Notes: generated from the sequence alone by a model not told the origin. A DNA stretch of 64,000 nucleotides from Chthoniobacterales bacterium (GCA_049282095.1 JBAPTI010000035.1:11927-75926), one strand, 5' to 3'. Numbered from the stretch's first letter, positions 5,483 through 56,058 are shown. Translations and numbers: made by a program.

Positions 5483-6673
5483 TCAATACTTGGCGACGGA
5501 TTTGTCGATCCGGTCGGCCCAGGCGAGGATGCCTCCCTGCACGTTGAAGAGCTTGGAGAATCCCGCTCCCTGCAGTTCCCGGAGGGCGTTGGCGGAGCGG
5601 ACGCCCGACTTGCACTGCAGGTAGATCGTCTCGGCGCTGTCGAGTTCGCTCATCCGGCTGTGGAGATCGCCCAAGGGGATCAGCTTGGCGCCGGGAATCC
5701 GGGCAATGTCCCACTCGAACTGCTCGCGCACGTCGATCAGGGTGACTTTTTCCCCGCTCTGGAGCTTGGCCTGCAGTTCCTCGACGGTGATCTCGGGCAC
5801 GGGGGTCTCGGCCTCCTCGGCCGCAGCCGCCTGAGGAATACCGCAGAAGGTATCGTAGTCGATGAGTTCTGTGACGGTCGGGTTCTCGCCGCAGACCGGG
5901 CACTTGGGATCCTTGCGGATCTTGAACTCGCGGAACTTCATCTTCAGCGCATCGAAGTGCATCAGGCGGCCGATTAGCGGCTCGCCGATTCCGACGATCA
6001 GCTTGATCGCCTCGATCGCCTGCATGACGCCGATGATGCCCGGGAGAACGCCCAGGACGCCTCCCTCGGCGCAGCTCGGGACCATCCCCGGTGGCGGTGG
6101 CTCGGGATAGAGGCAGCGGTAGCAGGGCCCGCCGAGGTGTGGTGCGAAGACGGTGCACTGTCCGTCGAAGCGGAAGATGGAGCCGTAGATGTTGGGCTTC
6201 TTCTGGAAGACGCAGATATCGTTGGAGAGGTAGCGGGTCGGGAAATTGTCCGTGCCGTCGATAACGATGTCGTAGGGGGTGACCAGCTCCTCGGCATTCT
6301 CCGAGGTGAAGAGGCAGTCGTGGAGGTCGACCTGCACGTTGGGGTTGATCTCCTTGATGGTGTCCCGGGCGCTGTTGATCTTCTTGCGGCCGACGTCGCG
6401 CGTGCCGTGGAGGATCTGGCGCTGGAGGTTGGAGAAATCGACGGTGTCGAAATCGACGAGTCCGATCCTGCCGATGCCGGCGGCCGCGAGGTAGAGGGCG
6501 ATCGGGGATCCGAGGCCTCCGGTGCCGATGCAAAGAATGCTGGATGCCTTGAGCCGTTTCTGCCCCTCGAGGGTGACTTCGGGCATGATGAGATGGCGCG
6601 AGTAGCGCGCGATCTCGTCGTTGCTCAGTTCGACGGCGGCGGAACGCGCCGGATCAAGGATGCTGTTGCTCAT
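5483..6673 (-). CDS. moeB: ThiF/MoeB-family adenylyltransferase fused to C-terminal rhodanese domain (MoeB/MoeZ type)
   Basis: Nucleotide-binding GTGGLGSPIALYLAAAGIGRIGLVDFD, two CxxC pairs (CYRC, CPVC), C-terminal rhodanese active-site loop QCKSGVRS. Confidence 0.85.
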   Translation of the reverse strand: MSNSILDPARSAAVELSNDEIARYSRHLIMPEVTLEGQKRLKASSILCIGTGGLGSPIALYLAAAGIGRIGLVDFDTVDFSNLQRQILHGTRDVGRKKINSARDTIKEINPNVQVDLHDCLFTSENAEELVTPYDIVIDGTDNFPTRYLSNDICVFQKKPNIYGSIFRFDGQCTVFAPHLGGPCYRCLYPEPPPPGMVPSCAEGGVLGVLPGIIGVMQAIEAIKLIVGIGEPLIGRLMHFDALKMKFREFKIRKDPKCPVCGENPTVTELIDYDTFCGIPQAAAAEEAETPVPEITVEELQAKLQSGEKVTLIDVREQFEWDIARIPGAKLIPLGDLHSRMSELDSAETIYLQCKSGVRSANALRELQGAGFSKLFNVQGGILAWADRIDKSVAKY

Positions 6674-6760
6674 AAAAGGGGGCTAAAATTAGCCGCTGGG
6701 GCCTTCCCTATCAAGGGAAAGAGGCCTCCGCTAACTCTTTTAAGACATGGTTTTTTGCCC

Positions 6761-7975
6761 CTACGACCCGTTCTTTTCGAGTTCCGCGACCTGGGAGACG
6801 TCCTTGTCGCCGCGTCCCGAGAGGTTCACCACGATGATTTCTTCGGGCTTCATGGTGGGGGCTACCTTGATGACCTCGGCGATGGCGTGGGCTGTCTCCA
6901 GTGCGGGAATGATCCCCTCGATGGAGGACAGCTTATGGAAGGCCGCCAGGGCCTCCTCATCGGTGGCGTAGGAGTAATGCACTCGGCCGGCATCCTTGAG
7001 GAAGCTGTGTTCGGGCCCGATTGCCGCATAGTCGAGACCCGCCGAGACCGAGTGGGTGAGTTCGATCTGGCCGTCGGCATCGGCGAGGAGCCAGGTCTTG
7101 GTTCCCTGAAGGACTCCGAGCTTGCCTCCCTGGAAGCGGGCGGCGTGTTTGCCGCGGACGATGCCTCCTCCTCCTGCCTCGACTCCGGTCATGCGGACTT
7201 CCTCGTCGTTCAGGAAGGCATAGAAGAGACCGATGGCATTGCTGCCTCCCCCGACACAGGCCACAAGAAGATCGGGCAACCGTTCCTCGCGCTGAAGGAT
7301 CTGCTTGCGGGACTCGTCACCGATGATGCGGTGGAAGTCGCGAACGATCATCGGGTAGGGATGGGCGCCCAGTGCCGACCCGAGGATGTAGTGGGTGTCG
7401 CGCACATTGGTGACCCAGTCGCGCATCGCCTCGTTGATCGCCTCCTTGAGCGTGGCCTGTCCGGCGGTGACGCCGATGACCTCGGCCCCCAGGAAGCGCA
7501 TGCGGGCTACGTTGAGCGCCTGGCGCTCCATGTCGACCGCGCCCATGTAGATCCGACATTGGAAGCCGAAGCGGGCCGCCGCAGTGGCCGTGGCGACGCC
7601 GTGCTGACCGGCTCCTGTTTCGGCAATGATCCGCTTCTTTCCCATGCGTCGGGCGAGCAGGATCTGGCCGAGGGCGTTGTTGATCTTGTGAGCGCCGGTG
7701 TGGAGCAGGTCCTCGCGCTTGAGGTAGATTTTTGCGCCGCCAAGTTCCTTGGTGAGGCGTTCCGCAAAGTAGAGCGGGGTGGGTCGCCCGACGAATTCCC
7801 GGAGCAGGGAGGAGAGTTCGTTCCGGAAGGAGGGATCCTTGCGGGCCGCCTCGTATTCCCGTTCAAGCTCCAGCAGGGCGGTCATCAGGGTCTCGGGGAC
7901 AAAGCGCCCCCCGTAGGGACCGAAGTGTCCGTGTTGATCCGGTAAGCTGGTGAGGTCGGGAAGCTGGGTTGCCAT
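6761..7975 (-). CDS. trpB: tryptophan synthase beta chain
   Basis: [13 protein letters not shown] (PLP lysine), GGGSNAIG, full length 404 aa. No trpA adjacent. Confidence 0.95.
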
Positions 7976-8005
7976 GGGATGAGAGGATTCAGTATGGACA
8001 GGAAA

Positions 8006-9067
8006 TCATCCCTCCGCAATCGCTCGGAATGCTTTCTCGATGGCTTTCCGGTGAGGGGATGGGATCGGAAGTCCCGGAAGCTCCTCCCTGCTGAAGTCGC
8101 GGACTTTGCCGGGCAAGGCACCCTTCACTGGAAACACCTTCATCGTGATGCTGTAACGGGTGATCGGGTAAGTCAGTTCCGAGATGGACCGGCCCGTGGG
8201 GGTCATGGTACCCAGTTCCGGAAGAATCCAGAGTCCTCGCCAGCGCGGCCCCTCCGATTGCTCAAGATGGAGTTTCTGGCCGCGTTGAAACCATGCACGG
8301 TGCTCTGTGAGCTTGGTGGTTACCCGGCGCGGTGATTTTTTGGGGAGCGTTTCCGGGGCGGTCGCCGAGCAGGTGCTCTTCACCGGGCAGGAGGTGCAGT
8401 CCGGTTTTCCTGCGGAGCAGACCATCGCCCCCAGATCCATGAGGGCCGAGGCGATCTCCCGGCATCCTGTTTCCGGGAAAAAGGATCCCGCGAGATTCGC
8501 GATGGCCTTCTTGCCGGGCGCGGTGTCGATCGGAATGGCGACATTCCCCCAGCGCGCCAGCACCCGGATGATGTTGGTGTCGAGTACCACGGCCGATCGG
8601 TCATGAGCGAAGGCCAGGATGGCCGCCGCCGTATAGGCGCCGATCCCGGGCAGCGCCAGAAGCGGTCCCTCCGTGTCGGGAACGCTTCCCCCGTGCCGCT
8701 CCATGATGGTTTTCGCAGCCGAGTGGAGTCGTCGGGCGCGCGAGTAATAGCCCAGCCCCTCCCATGCCGAGAGAACCTCCTGCTCGGAGGCGGCAGCGAG
8801 GGCCGGAAGGCTAGGGAAACGCTTCATCCAGTCGGCGAAGCGCGCGATCACGGTGGCCACCGTCGTCTGCTGGAGCATGAATTCCGAGACCAGCACGGCG
8901 TAAGGGGTGTTCTTGCGGCGCCATGGAAGATCATGGCGTCCCGCCCGTACGTGCCACGAGAGCAGTGCCCGGCGGGCAGACTTCGCGAGTCGCTCCGTCC
9001 GGATGGCTGTTTGCCCGGTTTTTGTTGTGATGGCTCTCTTCTTGTCCACGGAACGCTCGTAGGGCAC
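8006..9067 (-). CDS. mutY: A/G-specific adenine DNA glycosylase
   Basis: HDLPWRR..PYAVLVSEFMLQQTTV and 4Fe-4S loop CSAGKPDCTSCPVKSTC (C-x6-C-x2-C-x5-C). Track start is a GTG at 9067; start uncertain. Confidence 0.85.
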   Translation of the reverse strand: MPYERSVDKKRAITTKTGQTAIRTERLAKSARRALLSWHVRAGRHDLPWRRKNTPYAVLVSEFMLQQTTVATVIARFADWMKRFPSLPALAAASEQEVLSAWEGLGYYSRARRLHSAAKTIMERHGGSVPDTEGPLLALPGIGAYTAAAILAFAHDRSAVVLDTNIIRVLARWGNVAIPIDTAPGKKAIANLAGSFFPETGCREIASALMDLGAMVCSAGKPDCTSCPVKSTCSATAPETLPKKSPRRVTTKLTEHRAWFQRGQKLHLEQSEGPRWRGLWILPELGTMTPTGRSISELTYPITRYSITMKVFPVKGALPGKVRDFSREELPGLPIPSPHRKAIEKAFRAIAEG

Positions 9068-9071
9068 CTTG

Positions 9072-10022
9072 ATGGAAACCGCAAGCGATCCCGTGCCTCC
9101 CCCGATCCACTCCCAGACCTATCCCCTGACGATGGAGCAGGCTGACAGGCTCAGGGAGGTGCTCCGGGAGAGGGGTTTCACCTTCTCGGAGAAGCCTTAC
9201 ACGCTCTACGCCGCGACGAAGGAGAAGCTCAACGTAGCCGTCTATGAGAAAGGGCCCAAGGTTCTGATCCAGGGAAAGGGACTGGAGGATTTCATCACCT
9301 TCGTCATGGAGCCGGAGATCCTCGGCGAGGCCCGTCTCGGGTACGAGGAGGTTCATGAACCGGAGCAGTTTGAGCCTCATTTCGGCGTGGATGAGAGCGG
9401 CAAGGGGGATCTCTTCGGGCCGCTCGTGATCGCCGGGGTTTATGTGGATGGCGATCTCGCGAGGCATCTGCGCGACGCCGGCATCCGTGACAGCAAGGGA
9501 ATCGGAACGGACAGAAAAATCCGCGATCTGGCGGAAGTCATCCGCAAGTCGGGTGCTCCTTCCGAGCTGATCGTCATCGGTCCGGAAAAATACAACCAGC
9601 TCTACCGTTCCATCGGAAATCTCAACCGCCTTCTGGCCTGGGGCCATGCGCGCATCATCGAGAATCTCTGCGCTCGGGTTCCGGGTTGCCCGCGCGCCCT
9701 CTCCGACAAGTTCGCCGATGCCCGTGTCCTGCAGAAGGCCCTTCTGGAGAACGGCCGCAAGATCCGTCTCGACCAGCGCACCAAGGCGGAGAGCGACTAT
9801 GCGGTGGCGGCCGCCTCCATCCTTGCCCGCGAGGGATTCATCAACTGGCTCGACAAACATGGTGAAGAGCTTGGCGTGGAACTGGCCAAGGGGGTCTCGC
9901 CCAAGGTGAAGGCCGCCGCCGCGGAGATCATCGCCCAATACGGCCCGACCATGCTGCCGAAGGTGGCGAAAATGCACTTCAAGACGGCCGCGGAGGTGCT
10001 GACTGCCGCCGGAACCCTATGA
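9072..10022 (+). CDS. rnhC: ribonuclease HIII
   Basis: Catalytic block FGVDESGKGDLFGPLVIAGV preceded by an ~85-aa N-terminal domain (HIII architecture). First ATG at 9072 (track start is TTG 9069). Confidence 0.8.
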   Translation: METASDPVPPPIHSQTYPLTMEQADRLREVLRERGFTFSEKPYTLYAATKEKLNVAVYEKGPKVLIQGKGLEDFITFVMEPEILGEARLGYEEVHEPEQFEPHFGVDESGKGDLFGPLVIAGVYVDGDLARHLRDAGIRDSKGIGTDRKIRDLAEVIRKSGAPSELIVIGPEKYNQLYRSIGNLNRLLAWGHARIIENLCARVPGCPRALSDKFADARVLQKALLENGRKIRLDQRTKAESDYAVAAASILAREGFINWLDKHGEELGVELAKGVSPKVKAAAAEIIAQYGPTMLPKVAKMHFKTAAEVLTAAGTL

Positions 10023-15373: not shown

Positions 15374-16657
15374 ATGAGATTTTCAGAACTCGGAACACGG
15401 CTGGCAGGACAAACCGGCATCAATGCGCTCATGGCCGACCTGGGAGAGGCCTTGGCGGCTTCCGCCGACCCCGCCCCACTGATGCTGGGGGGAGGCAACC
15501 CCGCCCATATCCCCGCGATGGAAAGAGTCTGGGAGGAGCGGATGAGGGAGATCATCTCCGATCCATCAGTACTGCGTCGGACCCTTGCCATCTACGACCC
15601 TCCGCGGGGCAACCCGGGATGCCTTGAGGCCCTGGCCGGACTGCTGAGGAGGGAGTTTGGATGGCCCGTCGGCCCCGAAAACATCGCCGTCACTCCGGGC
15701 GGACAGACCGCCTTTTTCCAACTCTTCAACCTCTTTGGGGGAAAGACGCCCGACGGCGCGGCGGGGGAACAAGGGCGGATCCTCTTCCCTCTCATGCCCG
15801 AGTACATCGGCTACGCGGACCAGTCTCTGGAGAAGGATGCCTTCACCGCACTCAAGCCCCGCATCGAGGTCACCGGACCGCATCGGTTCAAATACGGGAT
15901 CGATTTCGAAAACCTACGCGTCACTCCCGACATCCGGGCTCTCTGCGTCTCCCGCCCCACCAATCCCAGCGGCAATGTCATCACCAACGGGGAGATTAAA
16001 CGCCTCGCCGAACTGGCCGCCCAACACGACATCCCGCTCATCATCGACAACGCCTACGGCTGGCCCTTCCCCGGAATCCTCTTCGACGAGGTCTCCCCCC
16101 TCTGGAGCGACCACACCATCCACGTGATGAGCCTCTCCAAATTCGGACTTCCCGGCACGCGCACCGCCTTTGTCGTCGGCCCTCCCGAGGTGGCCGCCGC
16201 CGTGGCCTCCATGACGGCCGTTACCGGTCTTGCCAATGGCAACTTCGGCCAGGCCATCGCCGGACCGCTGATCGCGAGTGGCGAGATCACCCGTCTGAGC
16301 CGCGACATCATCCGCCCCTACTACCTCGCCAAGAGGGATAAGGCCATGGCCGCCATTGCCGAGTTCTTCCCGGAGGAGGCCCCCTACTCGATCCATGAAA
16401 GCGGAGGGGCCATGTTCCTCTGGCTCTGGGTCAGGGATTCCAAACGAACCTCCAAGGAGATCTACGAATCACTCAAGAAACGCGGCGTGCTCGTCGTGCC
16501 GGGTGAATACTTCTTCTTCGGACTCGAGGATCAGGACTGGCCCCATCGGAAGGAATGCCTCCGCCTCTCCTTCGCCATGGACGACAACGACGTCAGGGAA
16601 GGCATCCGCATCATCGCCCACGAATTATTCGGGGAGTTAACCTCTTTTGATTTTTAA
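15374..16657 (+). CDS. avtA: valine--pyruvate (alanine-valine) aminotransferase
   Basis: Collinear with my recollection of E. coli AvtA: LMLGGGNPAHIP, LFPLMPEYIGYAD, CVSRPTNPSGNVIT, IIDNAYGWPFPGI, PLP-lysine block MSLSKFGLPGTR. Confidence 0.85.
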   Translation: MRFSELGTRLAGQTGINALMADLGEALAASADPAPLMLGGGNPAHIPAMERVWEERMREIISDPSVLRRTLAIYDPPRGNPGCLEALAGLLRREFGWPVGPENIAVTPGGQTAFFQLFNLFGGKTPDGAAGEQGRILFPLMPEYIGYADQSLEKDAFTALKPRIEVTGPHRFKYGIDFENLRVTPDIRALCVSRPTNPSGNVITNGEIKRLAELAAQHDIPLIIDNAYGWPFPGILFDEVSPLWSDHTIHVMSLSKFGLPGTRTAFVVGPPEVAAAVASMTAVTGLANGNFGQAIAGPLIASGEITRLSRDIIRPYYLAKRDKAMAAIAEFFPEEAPYSIHESGGAMFLWLWVRDSKRTSKEIYESLKKRGVLVVPGEYFFFGLEDQDWPHRKECLRLSFAMDDNDVREGIRIIAHELFGELTSFDF

Positions 16658-16683
16658 TCAGGAACTCAAGAACTCAGGAATCA

Positions 16684-16877
16684 ATCCAAGGGAAACTGGT
16701 GCGGCGAAGCCGCAGCCCCAAGCGGCACCACTTGCGGGGAGGCAAGTGACGTCAACTCAGGGAAGAAACAGAAACTCTCGCGCAGAACCAAGCCTGTGGG
16801 AACAGGCGCGGAAGATCCTGCGAAAGCAGGACCCGTAAGGGCGGCACCGTCCGCCGGAAGGCGGATGCCCTCAAACG
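16684..16877 (+). repeat. hairpin-module repeat, locus 1 (one partial + one complete unit)
   Basis: Complete unit 16785-16877: GAACCAAG, CCTGT-GGGA-ACAGG, CGCGGAAGAT, CCTGC-GAAA-GCAGG, CCC-GTAA-GGG, GGCA-CCG-TCCGCC-GGAA-GGCGGA-TGCC, CTCAAACG. Partial unit 16684-16756. Confidence 0.7.
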
Positions 16878-16974
16878 CGGGGGCACAGAGAAGTTTTTGA
16901 ATCAGAACTGAAGCCGGAGGAAGTCGGCAACTAACGCCCTTGACGCGTAATAACATAAGTGGTAACAAGAATCC

Positions 16975-17202
16975 ATGACCCTCTCCCTGAAAGTCCGAAA
17001 AATCGGAAACTCCCTCGGTGTAGTTCTGCCGAAGGAAGCCCTTTCCCATCTCCATGTGGAGGAGGGGGACACCCTGACCCTGACCGAGGCTCAGGACGGA
17101 GTCCGCCTGACCGCCGCTGATCCCACTTTCACCGAGACGATGGAGGTCTTCGAATCCCTGAGCCGCCGCTACCGCAACGCCCTGCGGGAACTGGCCAAAT
17201 AA
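16975..17202 (+). CDS. AbrB/MazE/SpoVT-family antitoxin
   Basis: 75 aa, KVRKIGNSLGVVLPKEAL swapped-hairpin motif; 10 nt upstream of doc. Confidence 0.75.
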   Translation: MTLSLKVRKIGNSLGVVLPKEALSHLHVEEGDTLTLTEAQDGVRLTAADPTFTETMEVFESLSRRYRNALRELAK

Positions 17203-17212
17203 CCCGCGCTCC

Positions 17213-17605
17213 ATGAAGCTGCGATGGATCAGCCGCGAGGTCTGTCTCGCGGTACACGACATGCTTCTCTCCCAATACGGGGGATGTGCAGGCCTTCGTG
17301 ACTCCGGACTGCTCGATTCGGCAATTGCCCGCCCACTCCAGATGCAGGCCTACGGATCCCCTACCACTGCGGAACTCGCCGCCGCCTATGCGACCGGCAT
17401 CATCCGGAACCATCCCTTCCTCGACGGAAACAAACGGACCGGCTTCATGCTCGGATCCGGCTTTCTGGAACTCAACGGAATGGAATTCTTCGCCACCGAG
17501 GCAGATGCCGTGATCAAGACACTGGCCCTCGCCGCCGGGGAACTGACCGAGCAGGCTTATGCGGAATGGCTGGCGAAGAACAGCAGGGCAAAAGCGGGGG
17601 GCTGA
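17213..17605 (+). CDS. doc: Fic/Doc-family death-on-curing toxin
   Basis: Fic motif HPFLDGNKRTG; 130 aa. Confidence 0.85.
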   Translation: MKLRWISREVCLAVHDMLLSQYGGCAGLRDSGLLDSAIARPLQMQAYGSPTTAELAAAYATGIIRNHPFLDGNKRTGFMLGSGFLELNGMEFFATEADAVIKTLALAAGELTEQAYAEWLAKNSRAKAGG

Positions 17606-17822
17606 CAGAGATCCTAGGTTGTGGCCTTCCTCACATCCCGCTGATCGCCTCCTTCATCCGCGTCGTCCTGATGCTCCTCAATGCTCCTCACCCGCCGCAA
17701 GTCACAGGACAATTCCTGCGAGCATTACTCCCCTCTAACGGGTGTTGTCTTCTGCGGACTGATAAGAAAGGGCCTCTCGCGGAGACGCTAATAATGTAGC
17801 CCAAAAAAGAATCTAACTTCTG

Positions 17823-18140
17823 TCAGAAGAGCTGCTTGGGTTCCATTCGCCCGTAGATTCCATTCATCTGGAGATCCTGCGGGAGAAGAAATCTCGGGAC
17901 CCAGTCCATGGGAGCGTGTTCGTAAATCACAACACAAAACATCTCGCATCCCATCATCCAGCCTTTCCCATATTGTCCTTCGTAGTTTTTACAAATGGTC
18001 GAAAACCCCATTTTTTTAAACTCAATCACTTGCTGAATGAGTGACTTAGGTTCCCTCTTGCCGGGAGGTCGGGGTGGTATTGGCGGCGGAGTCTCCTCCT
18101 TTTTTCCGAACAAATATCGGTAAAAACCGTGGGAACCCAT
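17823..18140 (-). CDS. hypothetical protein (low-GC island)
   Basis: 105-aa ORF with proline-rich stretch ETPPPIPPRPPGK. Begins 4 nt after the upstream island gene stop. No family recognised. Confidence 0.4.
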   Translation of the reverse strand: MGSHGFYRYLFGKKEETPPPIPPRPPGKREPKSLIQQVIEFKKMGFSTICKNYEGQYGKGWMMGCEMFCVVIYEHAPMDWVPRFLLPQDLQMNGIYGRMEPKQLF

Positions 18141-18144
18141 ATTT

Positions 18145-18894
18145 CTATTTAACTATGCTTACGGCCGAAAACGCATCTGGAATTAATCTGACTAAATGCT
18201 CTAAGCGATCATCTACCCGCGGCATATCCAACTCAATATATGGAATATCCTCGTTTCGCAATTGCCGCAGGTATAGAGAAGCAGAAAATACTGAAACTTT
18301 ATCGAATTCACAGCTTCTGAGATTTGCGTGATTTATAGAGTCCTGAAAAGGGCTTAAATCATCAATTTCAAAAAACGGCTTTAGCTTTCTCTTCTCTGAT
18401 AGATCTTCATCGTTTGTTATCGGAGACCAAAACGCCAATAGAGCTTTTCTAGGTGTTCTTTCATTATTACCCCTGCTTTTTTCATTCTGCATTTTCTCAA
18501 GAACCTTCCACACCTTTTTAGAGTTTCTTCTGTTATTCAAATATGTATGTTTATTTGTTCCACACGCTTTCAAAAGTAATTTCTCATCGTTCGGCACAAT
18601 AGGCTGTCCTCCCACGGCACTTGCACTCCAGCTTTTAATTTCAACCTGGTAATGTTCTTTTGTGGTATAAACCCACGCATCCAATTGCGCACCACGCCCT
18701 CCTGCTTTAGGGGGCACTCTGCTAATAGAGAGTTCTTTATTTCCCGGCTGTTTTTTGAGGCAATCCTGCAAAATTCCCAGAATAAGATCTTCACCTATTA
18801 AGCCAGTAATTGAAGTAATTGGAGACCCAATTTGTTCCTTCCATTGATGTGTTGAATCATACAATCCAATCAGCTCATCTATTTTGATTTTCAT
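18145..18894 (-). CDS. hypothetical protein with PD-(D/E)xK nuclease-like signature
   Basis: 249 aa with GEDLILGIL (helix Glu), AQLDAWVY (Asp), 12 residues between that Asp and the Glu, then YQVEIKSW (E-x-K). AT-rich codon usage unlike flanking genes. Confidence 0.5.
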   Translation of the reverse strand: MKIKIDELIGLYDSTHQWKEQIGSPITSITGLIGEDLILGILQDCLKKQPGNKELSISRVPPKAGGRGAQLDAWVYTTKEHYQVEIKSWSASAVGGQPIVPNDEKLLLKACGTNKHTYLNNRRNSKKVWKVLEKMQNEKSRGNNERTPRKALLAFWSPITNDEDLSEKRKLKPFFEIDDLSPFQDSINHANLRSCEFDKVSVFSASLYLRQLRNEDIPYIELDMPRVDDRLEHLVRLIPDAFSAVSIVK

Positions 18895-18931
18895 CTTTGG
18901 CTATTTTGGGATCCTCTTGATTTACTAAACT

Positions 18932-19336
18932 CTACTGAACATAGATGGCCACGCCATCGATCGTTTTAATCTTGTTCATGCTGGTGCCGTAAAGCCCGCT
19001 TCCAAAATTCATGGTTGCGGCCCCACTTGCTTCTGATCCAAGAGATTTCACAATAACTCCATTAGCACCTAGCTTGGCTGCCTTTTCACGTATCTCCCGT
19101 ATTACGGTATTCATTTTTGCCTGTTCGTTCCACGCCCATGACCAGTAAGAATTCGCCGAGATAATCGCAATCTCCTCGTAGGGCTTCTGCGGCGGAGTTG
19201 AGTATATTCGCACCTGATCTGGGGAAATCGGAGGGTGTTGCTGGCCCGTGATAATCGCACTTCCGGTGGCACAGCCTCCCATGGAAAACGAGGCGAAAAG
19301 CAATAATATGGCTTGGCAGAAATACTTTATGTTCAT
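18932..19336 (-). CDS. small lipoprotein (RcsF/YbjQ-like size and pattern, unverified)
   Basis: Signal peptide + lipobox LLFASFSMGGC; 134 aa; C-terminal REIREKAAKLGANGVIVKS. Confidence 0.6.
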   Translation of the reverse strand: MNIKYFCQAILLLFASFSMGGCATGSAIITGQQHPPISPDQVRIYSTPPQKPYEEIAIISANSYWSWAWNEQAKMNTVIREIREKAAKLGANGVIVKSLGSEASGAATMNFGSGLYGTSMNKIKTIDGVAIYVQ

Positions 19337-19340
19337 GATG

Positions 19341-20012
19341 TTATGTTAGCGAATGGGTTTTAGGATGTTTTGTGGGATTTGACCATGGTGTCTTTACGGC
19401 AAGCGGAACCACTGCAGGATCTTCAGCCAGGGCCCTTTCCCTGATTGCTTGAGACAACATCTGATGCTCATCAGGGATTTCCCTTTCCAATAGGGAAAGC
19501 GCGTTGCTGAACTGAGATAGTTCTCGGTGAATCTCTGCTGCACAGAGCAGATCATCAGGATTTGAGAGATCCATCATTTTCAGTATCTGTTCAAGGTTCT
19601 GCCTGTCATGTGCCTGAGGCTCCTTTGTTTCGCCATGGCGGAAAGGATCGTTCTCAGCCCACCATATGGCTTTCCGGAGATACAGCAACTTCTCCGCGTT
19701 GTCCGCCATGCCCTCCGCAATGGCACGGTAGTAATCTTCTTTTAGGATGTCACCCGTGCATCTGGCGTCACTCCATCGCTCTTCGATAGTGTCAGTGCCG
19801 GAAGTGTTGATCGATTGCACGATCTCCCATTCACCAGTCCAGAACAGGAGATCTTCAGAAAAGCTTTTAAATAACCTCTCCCGATCGGGGAGCATGGATT
19901 CCTCACTTTTCCCATCTGTCCAATGTGTGAACTCCAGGGGGTGATCTGGGACTATCTTACTGATCACCAGAGGCTTGGTGCCTCCTTTAGGGATGATGAT
20001 TTGAAGCGTCAT
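19341..20012 (-). CDS. hypothetical protein (low-GC island)
   Basis: 223-aa ORF; its stop lies 4 nt upstream of the lipoprotein start. No family recognised. Confidence 0.5.
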   Translation of the reverse strand: MTLQIIIPKGGTKPLVISKIVPDHPLEFTHWTDGKSEESMLPDRERLFKSFSEDLLFWTGEWEIVQSINTSGTDTIEERWSDARCTGDILKEDYYRAIAEGMADNAEKLLYLRKAIWWAENDPFRHGETKEPQAHDRQNLEQILKMMDLSNPDDLLCAAEIHRELSQFSNALSLLEREIPDEHQMLSQAIRERALAEDPAVVPLAVKTPWSNPTKHPKTHSLT

Positions 20013-20125
20013 AGGGGGCTATGCGCGGTGGCTCGACGAGATGGTTTTGGATCCAGAATGAAGAGTCATGTCTCCTATCCATACAAAACAGCTTCAGAAT
20101 CGGAAACGGAGGAAGGAGAAAATTT

Positions 20126-20923
20126 TTATGGAAAGAAATTTTCCTTGAGGACCGGAAAGGCCATGTAGATCAACCAAAGGAGAAAAACTATACCGATAAA
20201 ATTCTTGATGCGATCATCCCAAGAAGGTCTCGATCGGCTCGGTAAGGGGAGATCGTGCCCTGCGTAATTTTCAGGGTTGCCGGGCAGAAACTTGGCACTC
20301 ATGACCCCCCTAGTCCGGACCTCTGGTCGTGTCTGCTCAACTGCTCGCTGCACCATCTGCCTTACTGCCGCCTTGCTCACACCTTTCTCTCTAGCGATCT
20401 CGGCGTACTTATTCCCTTCGGCGTAGGATTGCAGAACTTCTTGCTGTCCGGGAGTCAGTGAGGACATCCCCTCGCGGAGAATCACCCGAATGTCATTGCG
20501 CTCAGCCTCAAGCAATGGTGAAGCTTCAGGAGAAGGAATGGTTGTCTCCTTGCGGCTCTCTCCCTCGACACTCTCGTGACTGACAGGGGCGTCCAAGATC
20601 AGGGACTCCACCTCGGCCCGTCGTGCAGCTTTAGAGAGTGTATTGAGCAAGCGGTTACGGATTACCGTGGAGGCAAACGGCTCAAAGTTTCCTCTGGCGG
20701 GATCGAACGCATTGGCTGCATTCCACAAGGCGATTCGGGCCTCCTGCTCCCGCTCATCGACGTTATGACCGATGATGGAGATGCTTCGCGCAATCTTGAG
20801 GGCCAGATCAAGGTGCGATTCAAAGAGTTGCTCGGGAGTGGATGCGCTCACTGTAAGATAAGGAAAGCAGGCAATACCTTTTATCTGCGAACAAAAGGCA
20901 CAGGGATTTTGATGCCATGGCAT
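20126..20923 (-). CDS. sigma-70-family (ECF-like) sigma factor with C-terminal transmembrane segment
   Basis: Region 2-like EREQEARIALWNAANAFDPARGNFEPFASTVIRNRL, region 4 HTH LTPGQQEVLQSYAEGNKYAEIAREKGVSKAAVRQMVQRA, then a ~70-aa extension ending in hydrophobic IKNFIGIVFLLWLIYMAFPVL. Confidence 0.7.
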   Translation of the reverse strand: MPWHQNPCAFCSQIKGIACFPYLTVSASTPEQLFESHLDLALKIARSISIIGHNVDEREQEARIALWNAANAFDPARGNFEPFASTVIRNRLLNTLSKAARRAEVESLILDAPVSHESVEGESRKETTIPSPEASPLLEAERNDIRVILREGMSSLTPGQQEVLQSYAEGNKYAEIAREKGVSKAAVRQMVQRAVEQTRPEVRTRGVMSAKFLPGNPENYAGHDLPLPSRSRPSWDDRIKNFIGIVFLLWLIYMAFPVLKENFFP

Positions 20924-21043
20924 GGGAGGGCCAAGCGAGTTCTGAATCTGTTTTCCAAGGCTTGGAAGTTTGGATGCAAGTTATGAAGACCAATAACGCT
21001 ATCCTCCAAATACCGCTCTCTACATTGGGGGGCAGGAGTTTTC

Positions 21044-21113
21044 GATGCCGCGCTAGGCGTGCGAGCGAAGCTGTAGTGAACTACTGCGAGCGAGCAGCAA
21101 CAACGCGCGGCGC
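21044..21113. repeat. GATGCCGCGCTAGGCG...GCAACAACGCGCGGCGC repeat, short copy
   Basis: Both ends match 42829-43015 (GATGCCGCGCTAGGCG[T/C]GCGAG and ACTACTGCGAGCGAGC[A/G]GCAACAACGCGCGGCGC). Termini GCCGCGC / GCGCGGC are inverted repeats. Confidence 0.7.
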
Positions 21114-21138
21114 GAAAAGAACCAGCCCAGTCTTTTCC

Positions 21139-22227
<1,089 letters not shown>

Positions 22228-32816: not shown

Positions 32817-33863
32817 TCACCGATAGCGCATCGCCGCTTTCTTGAGCGCGGCTCCGATGCTGCGCCGCAGAGCGGCCGGCGCGAGCACCTCGGCGCGCGG
32901 TCCCCAGCCCAAGATCCAGGATTCCAGATCAGGAGCCAGCCCGACCTTGAGCGACAACTCCGCGGATCCATCCTTTCTTCTGGTGATCTTCTGGGACGGG
33001 TGCCAGCGCCGTTCTGAAGCCAGGGCTGCGGCGATGGGATCCAGCAGGATCCTGACCTTCTGCGCGTTCTTCGACTCAAAGGCGGAAAAACTCTGCCCGA
33101 GCATGGCATCGAGGGAGAAGTCCTTGGGACGATCGAATCGTCGCTGGAGGTCCTTCGGTCTGGTGATGCGGGCCAGCGCGAAGGTCCTCACCGACTTGCG
33201 GCCGAGATCGAGGCCGATCAGATACCACTGACCGGCGATACATCCCAGATGATAGGGTTGGATGCGGCGTTCGTTCCGTTCACCGTCGCCGGGTTTCCGG
33301 TAGAGGAAGGAAACCTCATGGGAATCCAGGAGGGCGGAGCTGAGGGTCCGGAAGGCATGGAGATCATTGGCGGGAGGACCGGAAGGACGGAAGGAAAGCG
33401 CCTGACTCAGGTCGTGAAGGGAGATCTCCGCGCGCGAGGGAAGTCCTTCGATCAGCTTGGTGAAGGCGGTCCCTATAGCCTTCTCGAAGGGAGTGCCGCG
33501 GTATTGTTCGGCGGCCTTCTGGGCGACCAGCAGGGCCACCACCTCCCCCTCCTGCAGGGAGAGGGAGGGCAATTCCTTCACCTCGCGGGTGTAGCGGAAC
33601 CCGTGATGAACCGTGTCGTAATCAATCGGCAACCGGAGTTGGTCACGCATGAAATCGATGTCCCGCTGCACCGTCTTGTAGGAGACCTCAAAGACCCGCG
33701 AAAGCGCCTGGCAATTGGGAAACTCCCCCATCTGGAGCAACTGATGGATCTGCATGATCCGGTACATCGGGAGACGGGCGGATCGCCCCTCCTGCCCGCC
33801 AGATTGCAGGGCGGGACGTCTGGGGCGGCGTGGAGTGAGTGATGTCCTAGGCATGGGTGACAT
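32817..33863 (-). CDS. HTH + WYL-domain transcriptional regulator
   Basis: N-terminal HTH (ALSRVFEVSYKTVQRDIDFM) and WYL block GQWYLIGLD. Several in-frame ATGs, so the true start may be 33767 (MYRIMQ). Confidence 0.75.
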   Translation of the reverse strand: MSPMPRTSLTPRRPRRPALQSGGQEGRSARLPMYRIMQIHQLLQMGEFPNCQALSRVFEVSYKTVQRDIDFMRDQLRLPIDYDTVHHGFRYTREVKELPSLSLQEGEVVALLVAQKAAEQYRGTPFEKAIGTAFTKLIEGLPSRAEISLHDLSQALSFRPSGPPANDLHAFRTLSSALLDSHEVSFLYRKPGDGERNERRIQPYHLGCIAGQWYLIGLDLGRKSVRTFALARITRPKDLQRRFDRPKDFSLDAMLGQSFSAFESKNAQKVRILLDPIAAALASERRWHPSQKITRRKDGSAELSLKVGLAPDLESWILGWGPRAEVLAPAALRRSIGAALKKAAMRYR

Positions 33864-34149
33864 GATGCGTGAAAGGGTGATACGTTAAAAAGCTAATTCA
33901 CAAGACTTGGGCACCCGCAATGCGGTGCGCTTTTAACGCAGTTACAAGGTTAGAATGTGAAAGGTTAAAAAAGGTGCAGAGGGCCGAGTTCAGTCCTTCA
34001 ACTTTTCAACTTTCGCTCCAACGGGGCGAGCCCATTGGGGGCGACCGGCCCAATTATCTGCCGGTCGTCCCCGACCAGGCATCCTCTCCCACAGGCGTGG
34101 AATCGGACTACCTTCGGTATGATTAAGCCGCCTTCCTAGGCGCCTTTTG

Positions 34150-45867: not shown

Positions 45868-46223
45868 GGGGGCGTACTGGTTTCGACTCGAAGCTCATTG
45901 CGCGTTCTGCATGCCGAGGATGATTCGTTGGCCTCGTAAAAAATCGGATCAAACAAACAAACGCAGATTACGAAGATCTAGCTCTCGCGGCCTAAAGTCC
46001 GCGACGCTGACACACCGACGCCTGCTAGGTGTGAAGGCGACGACAGCAGGCTGATTCCTTGGCGGATTGACCGCGCCGGGGAGTGACTCGATTCCGTGGT
46101 CGATCGGGGGAAAGCAGCGCGCCGCACCGTGGCCGACCCCTTAAATCCCAAGTGCGGTCAAGCATGTGGACGGACGCCTAGTGCGGTTCGGGGACAGGGG
46201 TTCGACTCCCCTCGCCTCCACCA
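45868..46223 (+). ncRNA. ssrA: transfer-messenger RNA (tmRNA)
   Basis: 5' GGGGGCG pairs with 3' CGCCTCC, including the G3:U pair, followed by ACCA. T-arm GGGGTTCGACTCCCC. Internal tag frame GCA GAT TAC GAA GAT CTA GCT CTC GCG GCC TAA (45963-45995) encodes ADYEDLALAA. Confidence 0.85.
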
Positions 46224-54297: not shown

Positions 54298-55032
54298 ATG
54301 AACAACCGCACCGGGATTATCGCCGCCATGGAATCGGAAATCCGCGACCTCTCCTCGTCGCTCGAGCATGAGGGTGCTGAAACGGTAGCTGGGAGGGAAA
54401 TCCGTTACGGCCGCCTGGAGGGAGAACCGGTGGCCCTGATTCTCTGCGGCTGCGGCAAGGTGAATGCGACCCTCTCGGCCACCCTCCTCGCCGCACATGC
54501 GAAAGTCTCAAGGATCCTGGTCACGGGAGTTTCCGGGGGCCTTGCCGAAGGCATCAAGGTCGGGGACATCGTGATCGGGGACTCCTTCGCGCAGCATGAC
54601 ATGGATGCCCGGCCCCTCTTTCCCCTGCACGAGGTTCCCTTCGAGGGGTTCTCAACCATCGAGGCCGATGCCGCACTGCGCTATCTCCTGATGGAGGCCT
54701 CCCGGAGCATGCTCTCCTCCACGAGGCCTCCGGGACTCCAGGAAGCACAGGTCCGCGAGGGACTCGTGGTGAGCGGTGATCAGTTCCTCTCGAGCAGCGA
54801 GGCCCGCAACAACGTGCTGGAAAATCTCCCGAAAGCCTGCGCCGTCGACATGGAATCGGCGGCGGTCGCCCAGGTCTGCCGCGCGGCAGGTCTTCCGCTC
54901 GGGGTCATGCGCGTCATCTCCGACTCGGCCGATGGGAGCGCCCACATCGACTTCGCCAAGTTCGTGGAGGAATCCGCCTCAATAGCCTGCGCCGAGACGG
55001 TGAGGCACGCATTACGCGCCTTGGCGCGCTGA
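54298..55032 (+). CDS. mtnN: 5'-methylthioadenosine/S-adenosylhomocysteine nucleosidase
   Basis: [31 protein letters not shown]. Confidence 0.85.
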
Positions 55033-55250
55033 AGGCCTGCTAACGCAGGCCAAGGCTATTAGCCGTTTAGACTGAAGGCTGTTAGGAAAGCAGGAAACCA
55101 AAGGGGTCGAAAAGTTATTAACTTGGTTCTTTTGCTGGAGCAGAACGTGCCCGATGACCTGCTCCCACTTGCTTTTGGCACCAAAGTCTGCTCCGCAGCC
55201 GACGTGCCAAAAGTGCCGAAGGCATGGGAGTTAGGTCCATCGGCTCGTTA

Positions 55251-55526
55251 TGGAAGCGCTGATTAAATCGCATAGAGGCCGTTGCGGGAAGAATGGGCCG
55301 CGGGCAAGGCGGCTTGGCGCGAGCATCCCCGCAGTGGGCTGTAAGCACCAAGCCAACGCAGCCCCCGGCCTGTTATCTCCGCAACCCGGAGGGCTGAAGC
55401 CATTTGTCGATTTTTGCGGCGTTGCTCGCTCGGGCGAGACCGCTGCGGGTATCGCCCAGCACTCGCGCCTTCAAAAATCAGCAAATGCTCTTCAGCGGCC
55501 TTCATGGGATTTAATCAGCGCTTCCT
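55251..55526 (-). mobile_element. 276-bp MITE-like element, copy B (inverted relative to copy A), flanked by TA/TA
   Basis: Same length as copy A, with about a dozen substitutions by my hand alignment. Termini TGGAAGCGCTGATTAAATC / GATTTAATCAGCGCTTCCT. TA at 55249-55250 and 55527-55528. Confidence 0.8.
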
Positions 55527-55568
55527 TAGGTCTTTTCTGATTTGACGATCTCAGTTCTTATTTCTGAA

Positions 55569-55808
55569 TCATTCATTTTGGAGTGACTGTTCGAAAACAT
55601 AGCGGTGTATCGGGATAATAAATCCGTGCGTCTCGATTCCTCTGAGAATCCACCCGCTGCATCGCATTCGGGCGAGGCTCCGCGAAAGCAATTCATCCGT
55701 CTCTTTGGTCCAAAGGATACCAAACTGAAACTTTCCCTTTTCTTGAAGGATCTGCTCATCAAGAAGCTGCTTGCGTGTTTTGATCTGGAATTCGCTTTGG
55801 TGGTTCAT
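55569..55808 (-). CDS. hypothetical small protein in AT-rich patch
   Basis: 79-aa ORF in a locally AT-rich segment. Overlapping alternative ORFs exist and no family is recognised. Confidence 0.25.
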   Translation of the reverse strand: MNHQSEFQIKTRKQLLDEQILQEKGKFQFGILWTKETDELLSRSLARMRCSGWILRGIETHGFIIPIHRYVFEQSLQNE

Positions 55809-55885
55809 GTTTCGATGTGGCTTTGGCGTCGAAAAGCATCCGTTTCAAGCTACTTCTGACCTAACGCATTTTTGAACGACATGTC

Positions 55886-55937
55886 ATTATATTGCAATAA
55901 AGGATAACGCGTGCAATTTCCTCTTATGCAATATAAT
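55886..55937. promoter_or_regulatory. 11-bp perfect inverted repeat, operator-like
   Basis: ATTATATTGCA (55886-55896) and TGCAATATAAT (55927-55937), 30 nt apart, with a third TGCAAT at 55912-55917. Lies upstream of the 55569-55808 ORF. Confidence 0.3.
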
Positions 55938-56058
55938 CCGTTGATCTCCAAAGGGCACCAAGAGTGAAAGGGGCAGGTTTTTCATGGCCTCCTCCCAACA
56001 GTCTAACAGTCCAACAGCCCTTGGCCTATCCACCTCGTTCTAGCAAGTCGTCGACTTG

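Follow-up and report, generated by a model that had tools for sequence, protein, structure and literature searches.

The 64,000-nt stretch of DNA analysed here (the window), which comes from a Chthoniobacterales metagenome-assembled genome (Verrucomicrobiota; GCA_049282095.1, JBAPTI010000035.1:11927-75926) of an uncultured soil or freshwater bacterium, carries on its minus strand a compact, horizontally mobile cassette of five genes, encoding a sigma factor of the extracytoplasmic function (ECF) type with a hydrophobic C-terminal helix, a 223-aa cytoplasmic protein, a predicted lipoprotein, a predicted PD-(D/E)xK nuclease and a 105-aa partner of the nuclease. The cassette is made up of two sub-modules, and our tentative proposal, which we regard as possible rather than probable, is that it serves in nuclease-based defence against, or exclusion of, incoming DNA (phage or rival elements) and is gated by its own sigma factor. 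A sequence-only reading of the same DNA had described the region as a low-GC, horizontally acquired island bordered by toxin–antitoxin (TA) modules, of the kind in which uncharacterized defence or stress modules are found, and that interpretation is partly supported by the results given below.

All five open reading frames (ORFs) were found where the sequence-only reading had placed them (Table 1; the sigma factor gene as 20126-20923), separated by gaps of 113, 4, 37 and 4 nt. The NCBI proteins for the region are MFZ0434999-MFZ0435004; three cassette products are annotated there as 'hypothetical protein' and one as 'sigma-70 family RNA polymerase sigma factor', while the 105-aa product is called a hypothetical protein only by JGI. 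Hand counts of 19, 28 and 46 G+C residues in three 60-mers, from which the low GC content had originally been judged, were exactly reproduced, and the judgement itself was confirmed: the GC content of the block is 0.473, as against a mean of 0.611 (sd 0.019, minimum 0.562) over 549 other segments of equal size (z = -7.2), and in steps of 400 nt it drops to 0.37-0.52 over the island from ~0.62 in the flanks. At third codon positions the GC content is 0.35 in the nuclease gene, 0.53-0.58 in the other four cassette genes and 0.71-0.85 in doc, phd, sucB and sucA. In blastn comparisons, window 20869-17806 aligned with positions 6007-9116 of locus L002 as one colinear block (78% identity across 3,127 nt), with homology stopping 18 nt before the sigma factor start codon and 17 nt past the last stop codon and with unrelated sequence on either side. 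The proposed horizontal origin of the island is upheld by its composition, by the finding of copies with 72-85% DNA identity in unrelated surroundings and by a break in synteny exactly at the stop codon of sucB.

Co-occurrence of the genes elsewhere, on which the sequence-only reading had made itself depend, was also found. The cassette genes and their order recur in nine independent loci, with all five genes present in five of the nine and sub-sets in the other four, which lie on truncated or short contigs. The common order is seen in the window (its exact contig being L001), L002-L004, L078, L079, L080, L163/L164 and L165. Locus L162 retains the end of the lipoprotein gene followed by the nuclease and 105-aa genes, and in L161 the latter two genes follow a different gene, of 209 aa. 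Metagenome sequences of a narrow Verrucomicrobiota clade are the only ones to show the fixed combination, and a practical weakness is that no copy is from a cultured organism.

In L002, L078 and L079 the cassette abuts the core of an integrative mobilizable element, comprising a 91-aa gene, a gene for a 370-aa protein with weak, below-threshold similarity to MobA/VirD2 relaxases, three small genes, and genes for an HTH_17 protein and a tyrosine integrase; on the 4.8-kb contig L080 only the 91-aa and relaxase-like genes are seen. The relaxase-like gene is present in all four element loci, which represent one family of such elements, and the integrase in the three that are long enough. In these three loci the cassette lies between the integrase/relaxase core and other accessory genes, as is expected of element cargo, and variable genes separate cassette and core in L078 and L079. 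Only in L002 is the cassette bracketed by a direct repeat (189 nt), which stems from the 91-aa gene. Abi_C and two methyltransferases of type I (E down to 1e-277) are further cargo of L002, and L078 has in addition a type IIG enzyme resembling MmeI (E = 0), a regulator of the WYL type and a homologue of PDC-S08, so that the suspected defence-type setting was found around other copies and not around the window copy. The PDC-S08 homologue (a PADLOC candidate; E 1e-127; Pfam 5-nucleotidase) occupies L078 11174-12319, 1.1 kb downstream of the cassette and before the element core. At least two loci, the window included, carry the cassette chromosomally; the window copy has no element genes and does not occupy a cargo position, and neither flanking direct repeats nor att-like sites were found around it.

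Table 1. Features of the cassette region (window coordinates)
Feature	Position	Strand	Basis or remarks
Mobile block	17806..20869	(-)	Extent of colinear DNA homology with other cassette copies; 3,064 nt
ECF-type sigma-70 family factor, 241 aa from the probable GTG start	20126..20851	(-)	Sigma70_r2, Sigma70_r4_2, TIGR02937
Conserved non-coding element CCGTTTCCGATTCTGAAGCTGTTTTGTATGG	20079..20109	(-)	Between sigma factor and 223-aa genes
223-aa cytoplasmic protein	19341..20012	(-)	Degenerate N-terminal zinc ribbon; residues ~90-200 helical, resembling tetratricopeptide repeats (TPR-like)
134-aa lipoprotein (predicted)	18932..19336	(-)	Signal peptide and lipobox (M/V/L)-G-G-C
249-aa PD-(D/E)xK-fold nuclease (predicted), hypervariable effector candidate	18145..18894	(-)	Motif and AlphaFold2 (AF2) model
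105-aa nuclease partner	17823..18140	(-)	Starts 4 nt past the nuclease stop codon
Weak terminator-like hairpin	17772..17786	(-)	37 nt past the 105-aa gene; consensus scan

The encoded proteins and the conserved intergenic element

The 249-aa protein, in which a PD-(D/E)xK-like signature had been noticed, is by motif and by model a PD-(D/E)xK nuclease, an activity that is thus predicted. The candidate catalytic residues E35, D72, E85 and K87 are invariant across 24 homologues, and the AF2 model (predicted local distance difference test score, pLDDT, 90.2) has a helix at residues 26-47, strands at 55-58, 73-77 and 81-87, a helix at 104-120 and a strand at 149-155, and this is the canonical core order, helix(E35)-strand-strand(D72)-strand(ExK)-helix-strand, each motif residue falling in the element where it is expected. 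The named leading matches in Foldseek searches of PDB and BFVD, the strength of which is considered below, are all PD-(D/E)xK or restriction-type nucleases (SduA, Avs3, McrC, R2 endonuclease, SfsA, LmuA, Can2, HamA, HincII and Cas4), and many of them (SduA, Avs3, McrC, LmuA, Can2 and HamA) come from defence systems. Against the NERD domain (PF08378) the protein scored 14.7 bits (E = 0.046), under the gathering cut-off of 22.1, and it has additional conserved motifs of its own, LLAFWSP and FSASLYLR. Two near-identical pairs aside, the cassette copies of the nuclease are just 37-60% identical.

The nuclease family forms 24 clusters in an index of 5.8 billion clusters, and the wider family was found at 70 loci in GTDB species genomes from many phyla. 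At these loci neither tblastn nor profile searches detected any of the cassette partners, and when 131 immediate neighbours from 68 genomes were compared with Pfam and PADLOC no family occurred more than three times; with methyltransferases at 2/131 and no recurrent neighbour family, a classical restriction-modification pairing for the wider family was rejected. A phage or plasmid origin was likewise discarded after tblastn searches in which 50,697 phage records contained no match to either nuclease or lipoprotein and 72,556 plasmid records no match to the nuclease, with one match in 2.9 million viral contigs. In L005 (271-1997) a distant nuclease homologue (37% identical) adjoins a NERD-domain gene on a contig that also has a terminase small-subunit gene, which suggests that some members of the family are phage- or prophage-borne. 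Three metagenome-assembled genomes, one of Chloroflexota, one alphaproteobacterial and one of Dehalococcoidia, have two nuclease-family copies at distant chromosomal sites (L034/L036, L032/L073 and L059/L068).

Directly after the cassette-type nuclease gene, in nine of nine loci, lies the 105-aa gene, an adjacency and co-inheritance of the kind shown by type II TA pairs. Its product is rich in Pro at the N-terminus, shows conservation over a core of ~70 residues (KSLIQQVIEF..GKGWMMGC..APMDW..NGIY) and is represented by just six clusters among the 5.8 billion. No match to it was found in Pfam, NCBIfam, PHROG, PADLOC or PDB, and no DNA-binding or antitoxin-family domain was detected. PDB sequence searches with the sigma factor, the lipoprotein, the 105-aa protein and the profiles of the nuclease and 223-aa families returned nothing meaningful.

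The sigma factor matches Sigma70_r2 (E 1e-13) and Sigma70_r4_2 (E 1e-8) in Pfam, with no match for region 3 or region 1.1, and scores 85.3 bits against TIGR02937 (cut-off 42.9); it therefore has the sigma2 and sigma4 regions only that define ECF (group 4) factors, and was not assignable to a numbered ECF group. It did not match the PADLOC model for MzaA, which is also not among the 25 best NCBIfam matches listed. Its C-terminal extension consists of a linker of ~45 residues and a single tail-anchor helix, NFIGIVFLLWLIYMAFPVL, followed by just 6 residues. This hydrophobic helix, with a Kyte-Doolittle 19-residue maximum of 2.18 at residues 217-235, is kept in six copies, in keeping with the earlier suggestion of a membrane-tethered sigma factor. 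The start codon was less well chosen: because homology to all other copies begins 18 nt upstream of a GTG at 20851, the context of which is kept in all six copies, this GTG is probably the true start (241 aa), and not the ATG at 20923 (265 aa) given both by NCBI and by the sequence-only reading. L163, which otherwise matches, lacks a segment of ~133 nt upstream of the sigma factor gene (window 20897-21049). An imperfect direct repeat of 19-20 nt, GGCATCGAAAACTCCTGCC and GGCATCAAAATCCCTGTGCC, brackets this segment, and ATG 20923 falls inside it.

Between the sigma factor gene and the 223-aa gene lies a non-coding element (~31-45 nt) that is nearly invariant across six copies, the most divergent copy included. 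It is unique in the window, where the number of chance matches expected is 0, and among 166 fetched loci its core was found in cassette loci only (seven locus records). The element folds no better than shuffled sequence (z = 0.42) and has no Rfam match. Because the gaps downstream of it are just 4, 37 and 4 nt, we consider it a candidate promoter/operator for the four downstream genes.

The 223-aa protein, for which no match was found in Pfam, NCBIfam, PHROG or PADLOC, accounts for seven clusters in the 5.8-billion-cluster index, and an exhaustive profile search extended the family to 2,191 clusters at 50% identity. The consensus of the wider family combines a CPxC...CPxC zinc ribbon at the N-terminus with an SGNTFGAxxWTDGK motif and a TPR-like, helical tail, and the cassette subfamily has lost the Cys residues of the ribbon. 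In the AF2 model pLDDT is 59.5 overall, 71-93 at residues 90-200 and <50 at residues 1-88, and structure searches matched TPR proteins alone, these matches being generic and weak. Being encoded directly after the sigma factor gene, the protein was inspected for features of an anti-sigma factor, and neither a Pfam or NCBIfam match to an anti-sigma domain nor a hydrophobic helix (Kyte-Doolittle maximum 0.94) was found; it may be a divergent soluble anti-sigma factor. When the family profile was run with hmmsearch against all 166 fetched loci, only the cassette loci and L077 were recovered. Fusions to ankyrin repeats, DnaN, L7/L12, methyltransferase, RQC or M54 peptidase domains occur in part of the family, and the PADLOC matches of the family were set aside as arising solely via the fused ankyrin repeats. 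A DUF4236 gene lies near a 223-aa homologue in two otherwise different loci (L002 4554-5189 and L077 4150-4785); a gene call on the opposite strand at L077 4099-4665 is probably wrong.

The 134-aa product was correctly taken for a lipoprotein, having a signal peptide and, in all seven copies compared, an invariant lipobox Cys and a hydrophobic N-terminus, so that lipidation is predicted. It is the most conserved cassette protein, other copies being 86-93% identical to that of the window and up to 99% identical among themselves. Over its full length it matches phrog_27267, a phage-derived family for which no function is known (E 2e-10). Its matches to DUF4156, YbjQ_1 and RcsF are below the Pfam gathering scores (13-19 bits; cut-offs 23-29), and that to NF047442, a Leptospira salt-regulated lipoprotein family, is weak and also sub-threshold.

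Selection and mosaic divergence

The ratio of non-synonymous to synonymous divergence (dN/dS) lies at 0.07-0.29 over all five genes (sigma factor 0.21-0.27, 223-aa protein 0.14-0.29, lipoprotein 0.07-0.20, nuclease 0.15-0.28 and 105-aa protein 0.07-0.16), which indicates purifying selection and argues that none of the five is a decaying pseudogene. Synonymous divergence (dS) varies about five-fold along the block. Between copies it is 0.3-0.5 for the sigma factor and 223-aa genes (1.2-1.4 for L080) and 0.27-1.07 for the lipoprotein gene, and rises to between 1.1 and >3, or saturation, for the nuclease gene and to 1.1-2, or saturation, for the 105-aa gene. At the DNA level, homology is 72-85% from the sigma factor start through the first ~130 nt of the nuclease gene, is lost in the middle of that gene (window ~18760-18310) and returns at 70-75% over its 3' end and the 105-aa gene. 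When the window was compared with L162, with which it shares a chromosomal site, dS was 0.67-0.77 for the flanking genes, 2.2 for the nuclease gene and saturated for the 105-aa gene.

The genes also differ in the relationships that they suggest between copies. Identity matrices are well correlated between the sigma factor and the 223-aa protein (r = 0.89), less so between the nuclease and the 105-aa protein (r = 0.59) and poorly between the nuclease and the sigma factor (r = 0.38); L080 is an outlier for the sigma factor and 223-aa protein, groups with L162 and L002 for the 105-aa protein and with L165 and L163 for the nuclease. Because the matrices disagree between genes, recombination is indicated, and the block is a recombining mosaic in which very old alleles of the nuclease and 105-aa genes are joined to sigma factor and 223-aa genes that diverged recently and to a lipoprotein gene of intermediate depth. 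This pattern would fit diversifying or balancing selection centred on the nuclease. It does not fit one uniformly co-evolving operon, and instead separates two sub-modules of very different divergence depth. The five-gene order nevertheless persists, and since it is fixed despite saturated dS and recombination, the arrangement is kept by more than recent common descent.

Possible function and alternative explanations

Our working hypothesis for the cassette, which we hold tentatively, divides it into a regulatory or sensor half and an effector half. The former would comprise a tail-anchored ECF sigma factor at the inner membrane, a cytoplasmic TPR-like adaptor (the 223-aa protein) and an exported lipoprotein, and the latter a PD-(D/E)xK nuclease whose active site is intact, together with its translationally coupled 105-aa partner. 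The tethered sigma factor would be held inactive, or local, at the membrane until it is freed or activated by an envelope-level cue in which the lipoprotein or the adaptor takes part. One possible route is intramembrane proteolysis of the sigma factor, given a periplasmic tail of just 6 residues: by analogy with RseA-RseP, a tail of this length would make the protein a direct substrate of intramembrane proteolysis unless it is shielded. Transcription driven by the sigma factor would then start at the conserved element and take in the genes for the 223-aa protein, the lipoprotein, the nuclease and the 105-aa protein, and the nuclease would cut DNA while being restrained or directed by the 105-aa protein. 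It is from gene neighbourhood that we infer a defence role, and the joint action of the five genes and the direction of signalling are similarly conjectural. A more specific version appears unlikely: release of a tail-anchored ECF sigma factor would be controlled by a TPR-like adaptor together with a lipoprotein of the outer envelope, the freed factor would drive expression of a hypervariable nuclease and its 105-aa partner, and the whole would be a previously undescribed, envelope-sensing system of transcription-gated restriction or abortive infection carried by Verrucomicrobiota mobilizable elements.

Sigma factors have precedents in antiviral loci. In Myxococcus xanthus, the ECF sigma factor DdvS and the transmembrane anti-sigma factor DdvA control an island containing a cyclic-oligonucleotide-based antiphage signalling system (CBASS) and a CRISPR-Cas system of type III-B (PMC11506125). 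The cassette resembles this arrangement in having a dedicated, membrane-held ECF-type sigma factor encoded beside a candidate effector, antiviral effectors in the case of DdvS-DdvA, and in the proposal of regulated intramembrane proteolysis as the activation step. It differs in that the anchor is within the sigma factor itself (one helix at the C-terminus, followed by a tail of 6 residues), no separate zinc-binding anti-sigma factor is detectable, and the candidate effector is one small PD-(D/E)xK nuclease and not CBASS or CRISPR. The mzaABCDE anti-phage system includes the sigma-70 family protein MzaA (PADLOC PDLC02203; NCBIfam NF041931; PMC9523054). Here too a sigma-70 family protein lies within a defence gene cluster, putatively so in the cassette, whereas the cassette sigma factor does not match the MzaA model and no MzaB-E-like proteins accompany it. 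As precedents, DdvS/DdvA and MzaA lend support to a sigma-gated defence cassette. A sigma factor is reportedly also used by CalpS in a type III CRISPR accessory module. To our knowledge few antiviral loci use sigma factors, and DdvS/DdvA, MzaA and CalpS all lack a tail-anchored sigma factor or a lipoprotein.

Other comparisons concern single components. The cassette nuclease shares with Shedu SduA, Lamassu LmuA, McrC, Can2, Avs3, Hachiman HamA and NERD proteins a restriction-endonuclease-like core with the pattern E...D...ExK, and like the PD-(D/E)xK nucleases of defence systems it is accessory, patchily distributed and fast-evolving; it differs in showing no significant sequence match to them, in having motifs of its own and in its obligate 105-aa partner within its clade. 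The tight coupling of the nuclease to a small gene, and the very old, recombining nuclease alleles beside more conserved DNA, recall type II TA and polymorphic toxin-immunity systems, although the 105-aa protein is more conserved than the nuclease and has no recognizable antitoxin or immunity domain. Among the ways in which ECF factors are regulated, C-terminal extensions rank second in frequency; they are known from 19 groups such as ECF263, with 5 or 7 transmembrane helices (PMC7826278). The cassette sigma factor agrees with these in consisting of a sigma2-sigma4 core and an extension, with no recognizable cognate anti-sigma gene, and differs from ECF263 in that its extension has a single helix. 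In size, lipobox and weak profile similarity over the mature domain the lipoprotein resembles DUF4156, YbjQ and RcsF proteins, although none of the Pfam matches concerned reaches the gathering score. By analogy with RcsF, a stress sensor of the outer membrane, a sensor role for the lipoprotein may be envisaged.

The cassette as a whole matches no catalogued system and is plausible as an anti-phage or exclusion module. If its five genes cooperate, it would be a self-contained defence cassette with its own sigma factor and a periplasmic component, linking envelope sensing to a DNA-cutting effector. Long-term allelic diversity at a nuclease gene within a conserved mobile block is a possible search criterion for arms-race effectors, and two protein families without a curated model, the 223-aa zinc-ribbon/TPR family (~2,200 clusters) and the nuclease family, are brought to attention.

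A number of observations weigh against our hypothesis. The window copy has no restriction-modification or Abi neighbours. A search against the models of PADLOC-DB v2.0.0, of the kind proposed as a check in the sequence-only reading, gave no match for any of the five cassette proteins, the best E value (0.0087) being that of a helix-turn-helix region against PDC-M14B. The structural matches of the nuclease are all weak (best E 8e-3, with a template modelling (TM) score of 0.29; TM at most 0.31), and no structural assignment was found for the 105-aa protein or the N-terminal half of the 223-aa protein. ECF-type -35/-10 boxes are not recognizable in the conserved element, and the periplasmic tail of the sigma factor appears too short for extensive contact with the lipoprotein. 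The nuclease and 223-aa families each occur mostly without the other cassette genes: the wider nuclease family (~68 genomes) is mostly a solitary gene with no conserved partner, and in L077 a 223-aa homologue at 50% identity has DUF4236 for a neighbour and is accompanied by none of the other four cassette genes. Finally, the very different divergence depths of the two halves fit two independent modules equally well.

In this, the main alternative, the two modules would be unrelated and travel together through linkage, one being an ordinary envelope-stress ECF unit (sigma factor, adaptor and lipoprotein) and the other a selfish TA- or addiction-like pair in which the 105-aa protein neutralizes a nuclease toxin. 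Besides the jump in dS between the sigma factor and 223-aa genes and the nuclease and 105-aa genes, and the poor correlation between the identity matrices of the two halves, this explanation would account for the isolated 223-aa homologue of L077, for the different gene that precedes the nuclease and 105-aa genes in L161, for the 4-nt spacing and partly correlated divergence of that pair, and for the TA genes that are common nearby in the window. We nevertheless find it rather doubtful, because the five genes keep their order and tight spacing wherever sequence suffices, even though the block has recombined and contains very old alleles; a promoter would not fit into the 37 nt ahead of the nuclease gene, the sole conserved non-coding element sits upstream of the 223-aa gene, and neither a DNA-binding nor a known antitoxin domain is present in the 105-aa protein.

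It is very unlikely, in our view, that the cassette instead serves the integrative mobilizable element in entry or surface exclusion or in transfer control, with a TraT-type lipoprotein, a sigma factor that switches element genes and a nuclease that processes or destroys competing DNA. Such a role would be consistent with the position of the cassette directly beside the element core in four loci, with the strong conservation of the lipoprotein and with the match of the latter to a phage-derived family, but the chromosomal copies of the window and L162 are without element genes and still under purifying selection, the variable genes between cassette and core in L078 and L079 are as expected for cargo, and the relaxase match is below threshold. 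More improbable still is a solitary restriction-type enzyme (e.g. modification-dependent and type IV-like) with four unrelated hitch-hikers, which the patchy distribution of the mostly lone nuclease gene over many phyla, the rarity of methyltransferases next to it and the presence of McrC and several restriction enzymes among its structural matches would favour, but which leaves unexplained why the other four genes are maintained (dN/dS 0.07-0.29) and why the 105-aa protein is found only with the cassette nuclease clade.

Flanking sequence and minor features

On the low-coordinate side of the island lie genes for Doc (Fic/DOC, E 7e-18) and a MazE-type antitoxin, and for VapC (PIN) and VapB, so that on this side the TA modules of the sequence-only reading are present; the neighbour on the high-coordinate side is sucB, and the island is not enclosed by TA modules. 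L162 shares the chromosomal flank of the window (avtA-vapBC, 81% DNA identity) and lacks phd-doc (window 16975-17605, compared at L162 1359-1502). Because phd-doc is missing from this otherwise syntenic locus, it is a separate insertion or deletion and not part of the island, and the TA 'border' is incidental. No TA genes were visible in the regions fetched around the element-borne copies.

On the sucB side, synteny with the closest contigs (L081 and L082; sucAB 77-86% identical) runs from window ~32300 to the sucB stop codon and then ends, and L082 11168-12214, which follows sucB, matches window 32820-33866. This implies an inversion or other rearrangement whose breakpoints (~21133 and ~32800) delimit the 21.1-32.8 kb segment. 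Because the rearrangement comes right after sucB, the comparison with these sucAB relatives is blocked, and a clean empty site was not demonstrable in L081 or L082.

The hairpin downstream of the 105-aa gene may mark the end of the transcription unit; the evidence for it is weak in that promoter and terminator consensus scans gave site counts in the region that were not above those in shuffled sequence. Rfam returned zero matches in 16500-21500. Elsewhere in the window, a second and milder low-GC patch (0.51-0.53) lies at 55000-56000 in mostly non-coding DNA, and a tmRNA gene with the tag peptide ADYEDLALAA is located at 45868-46223.

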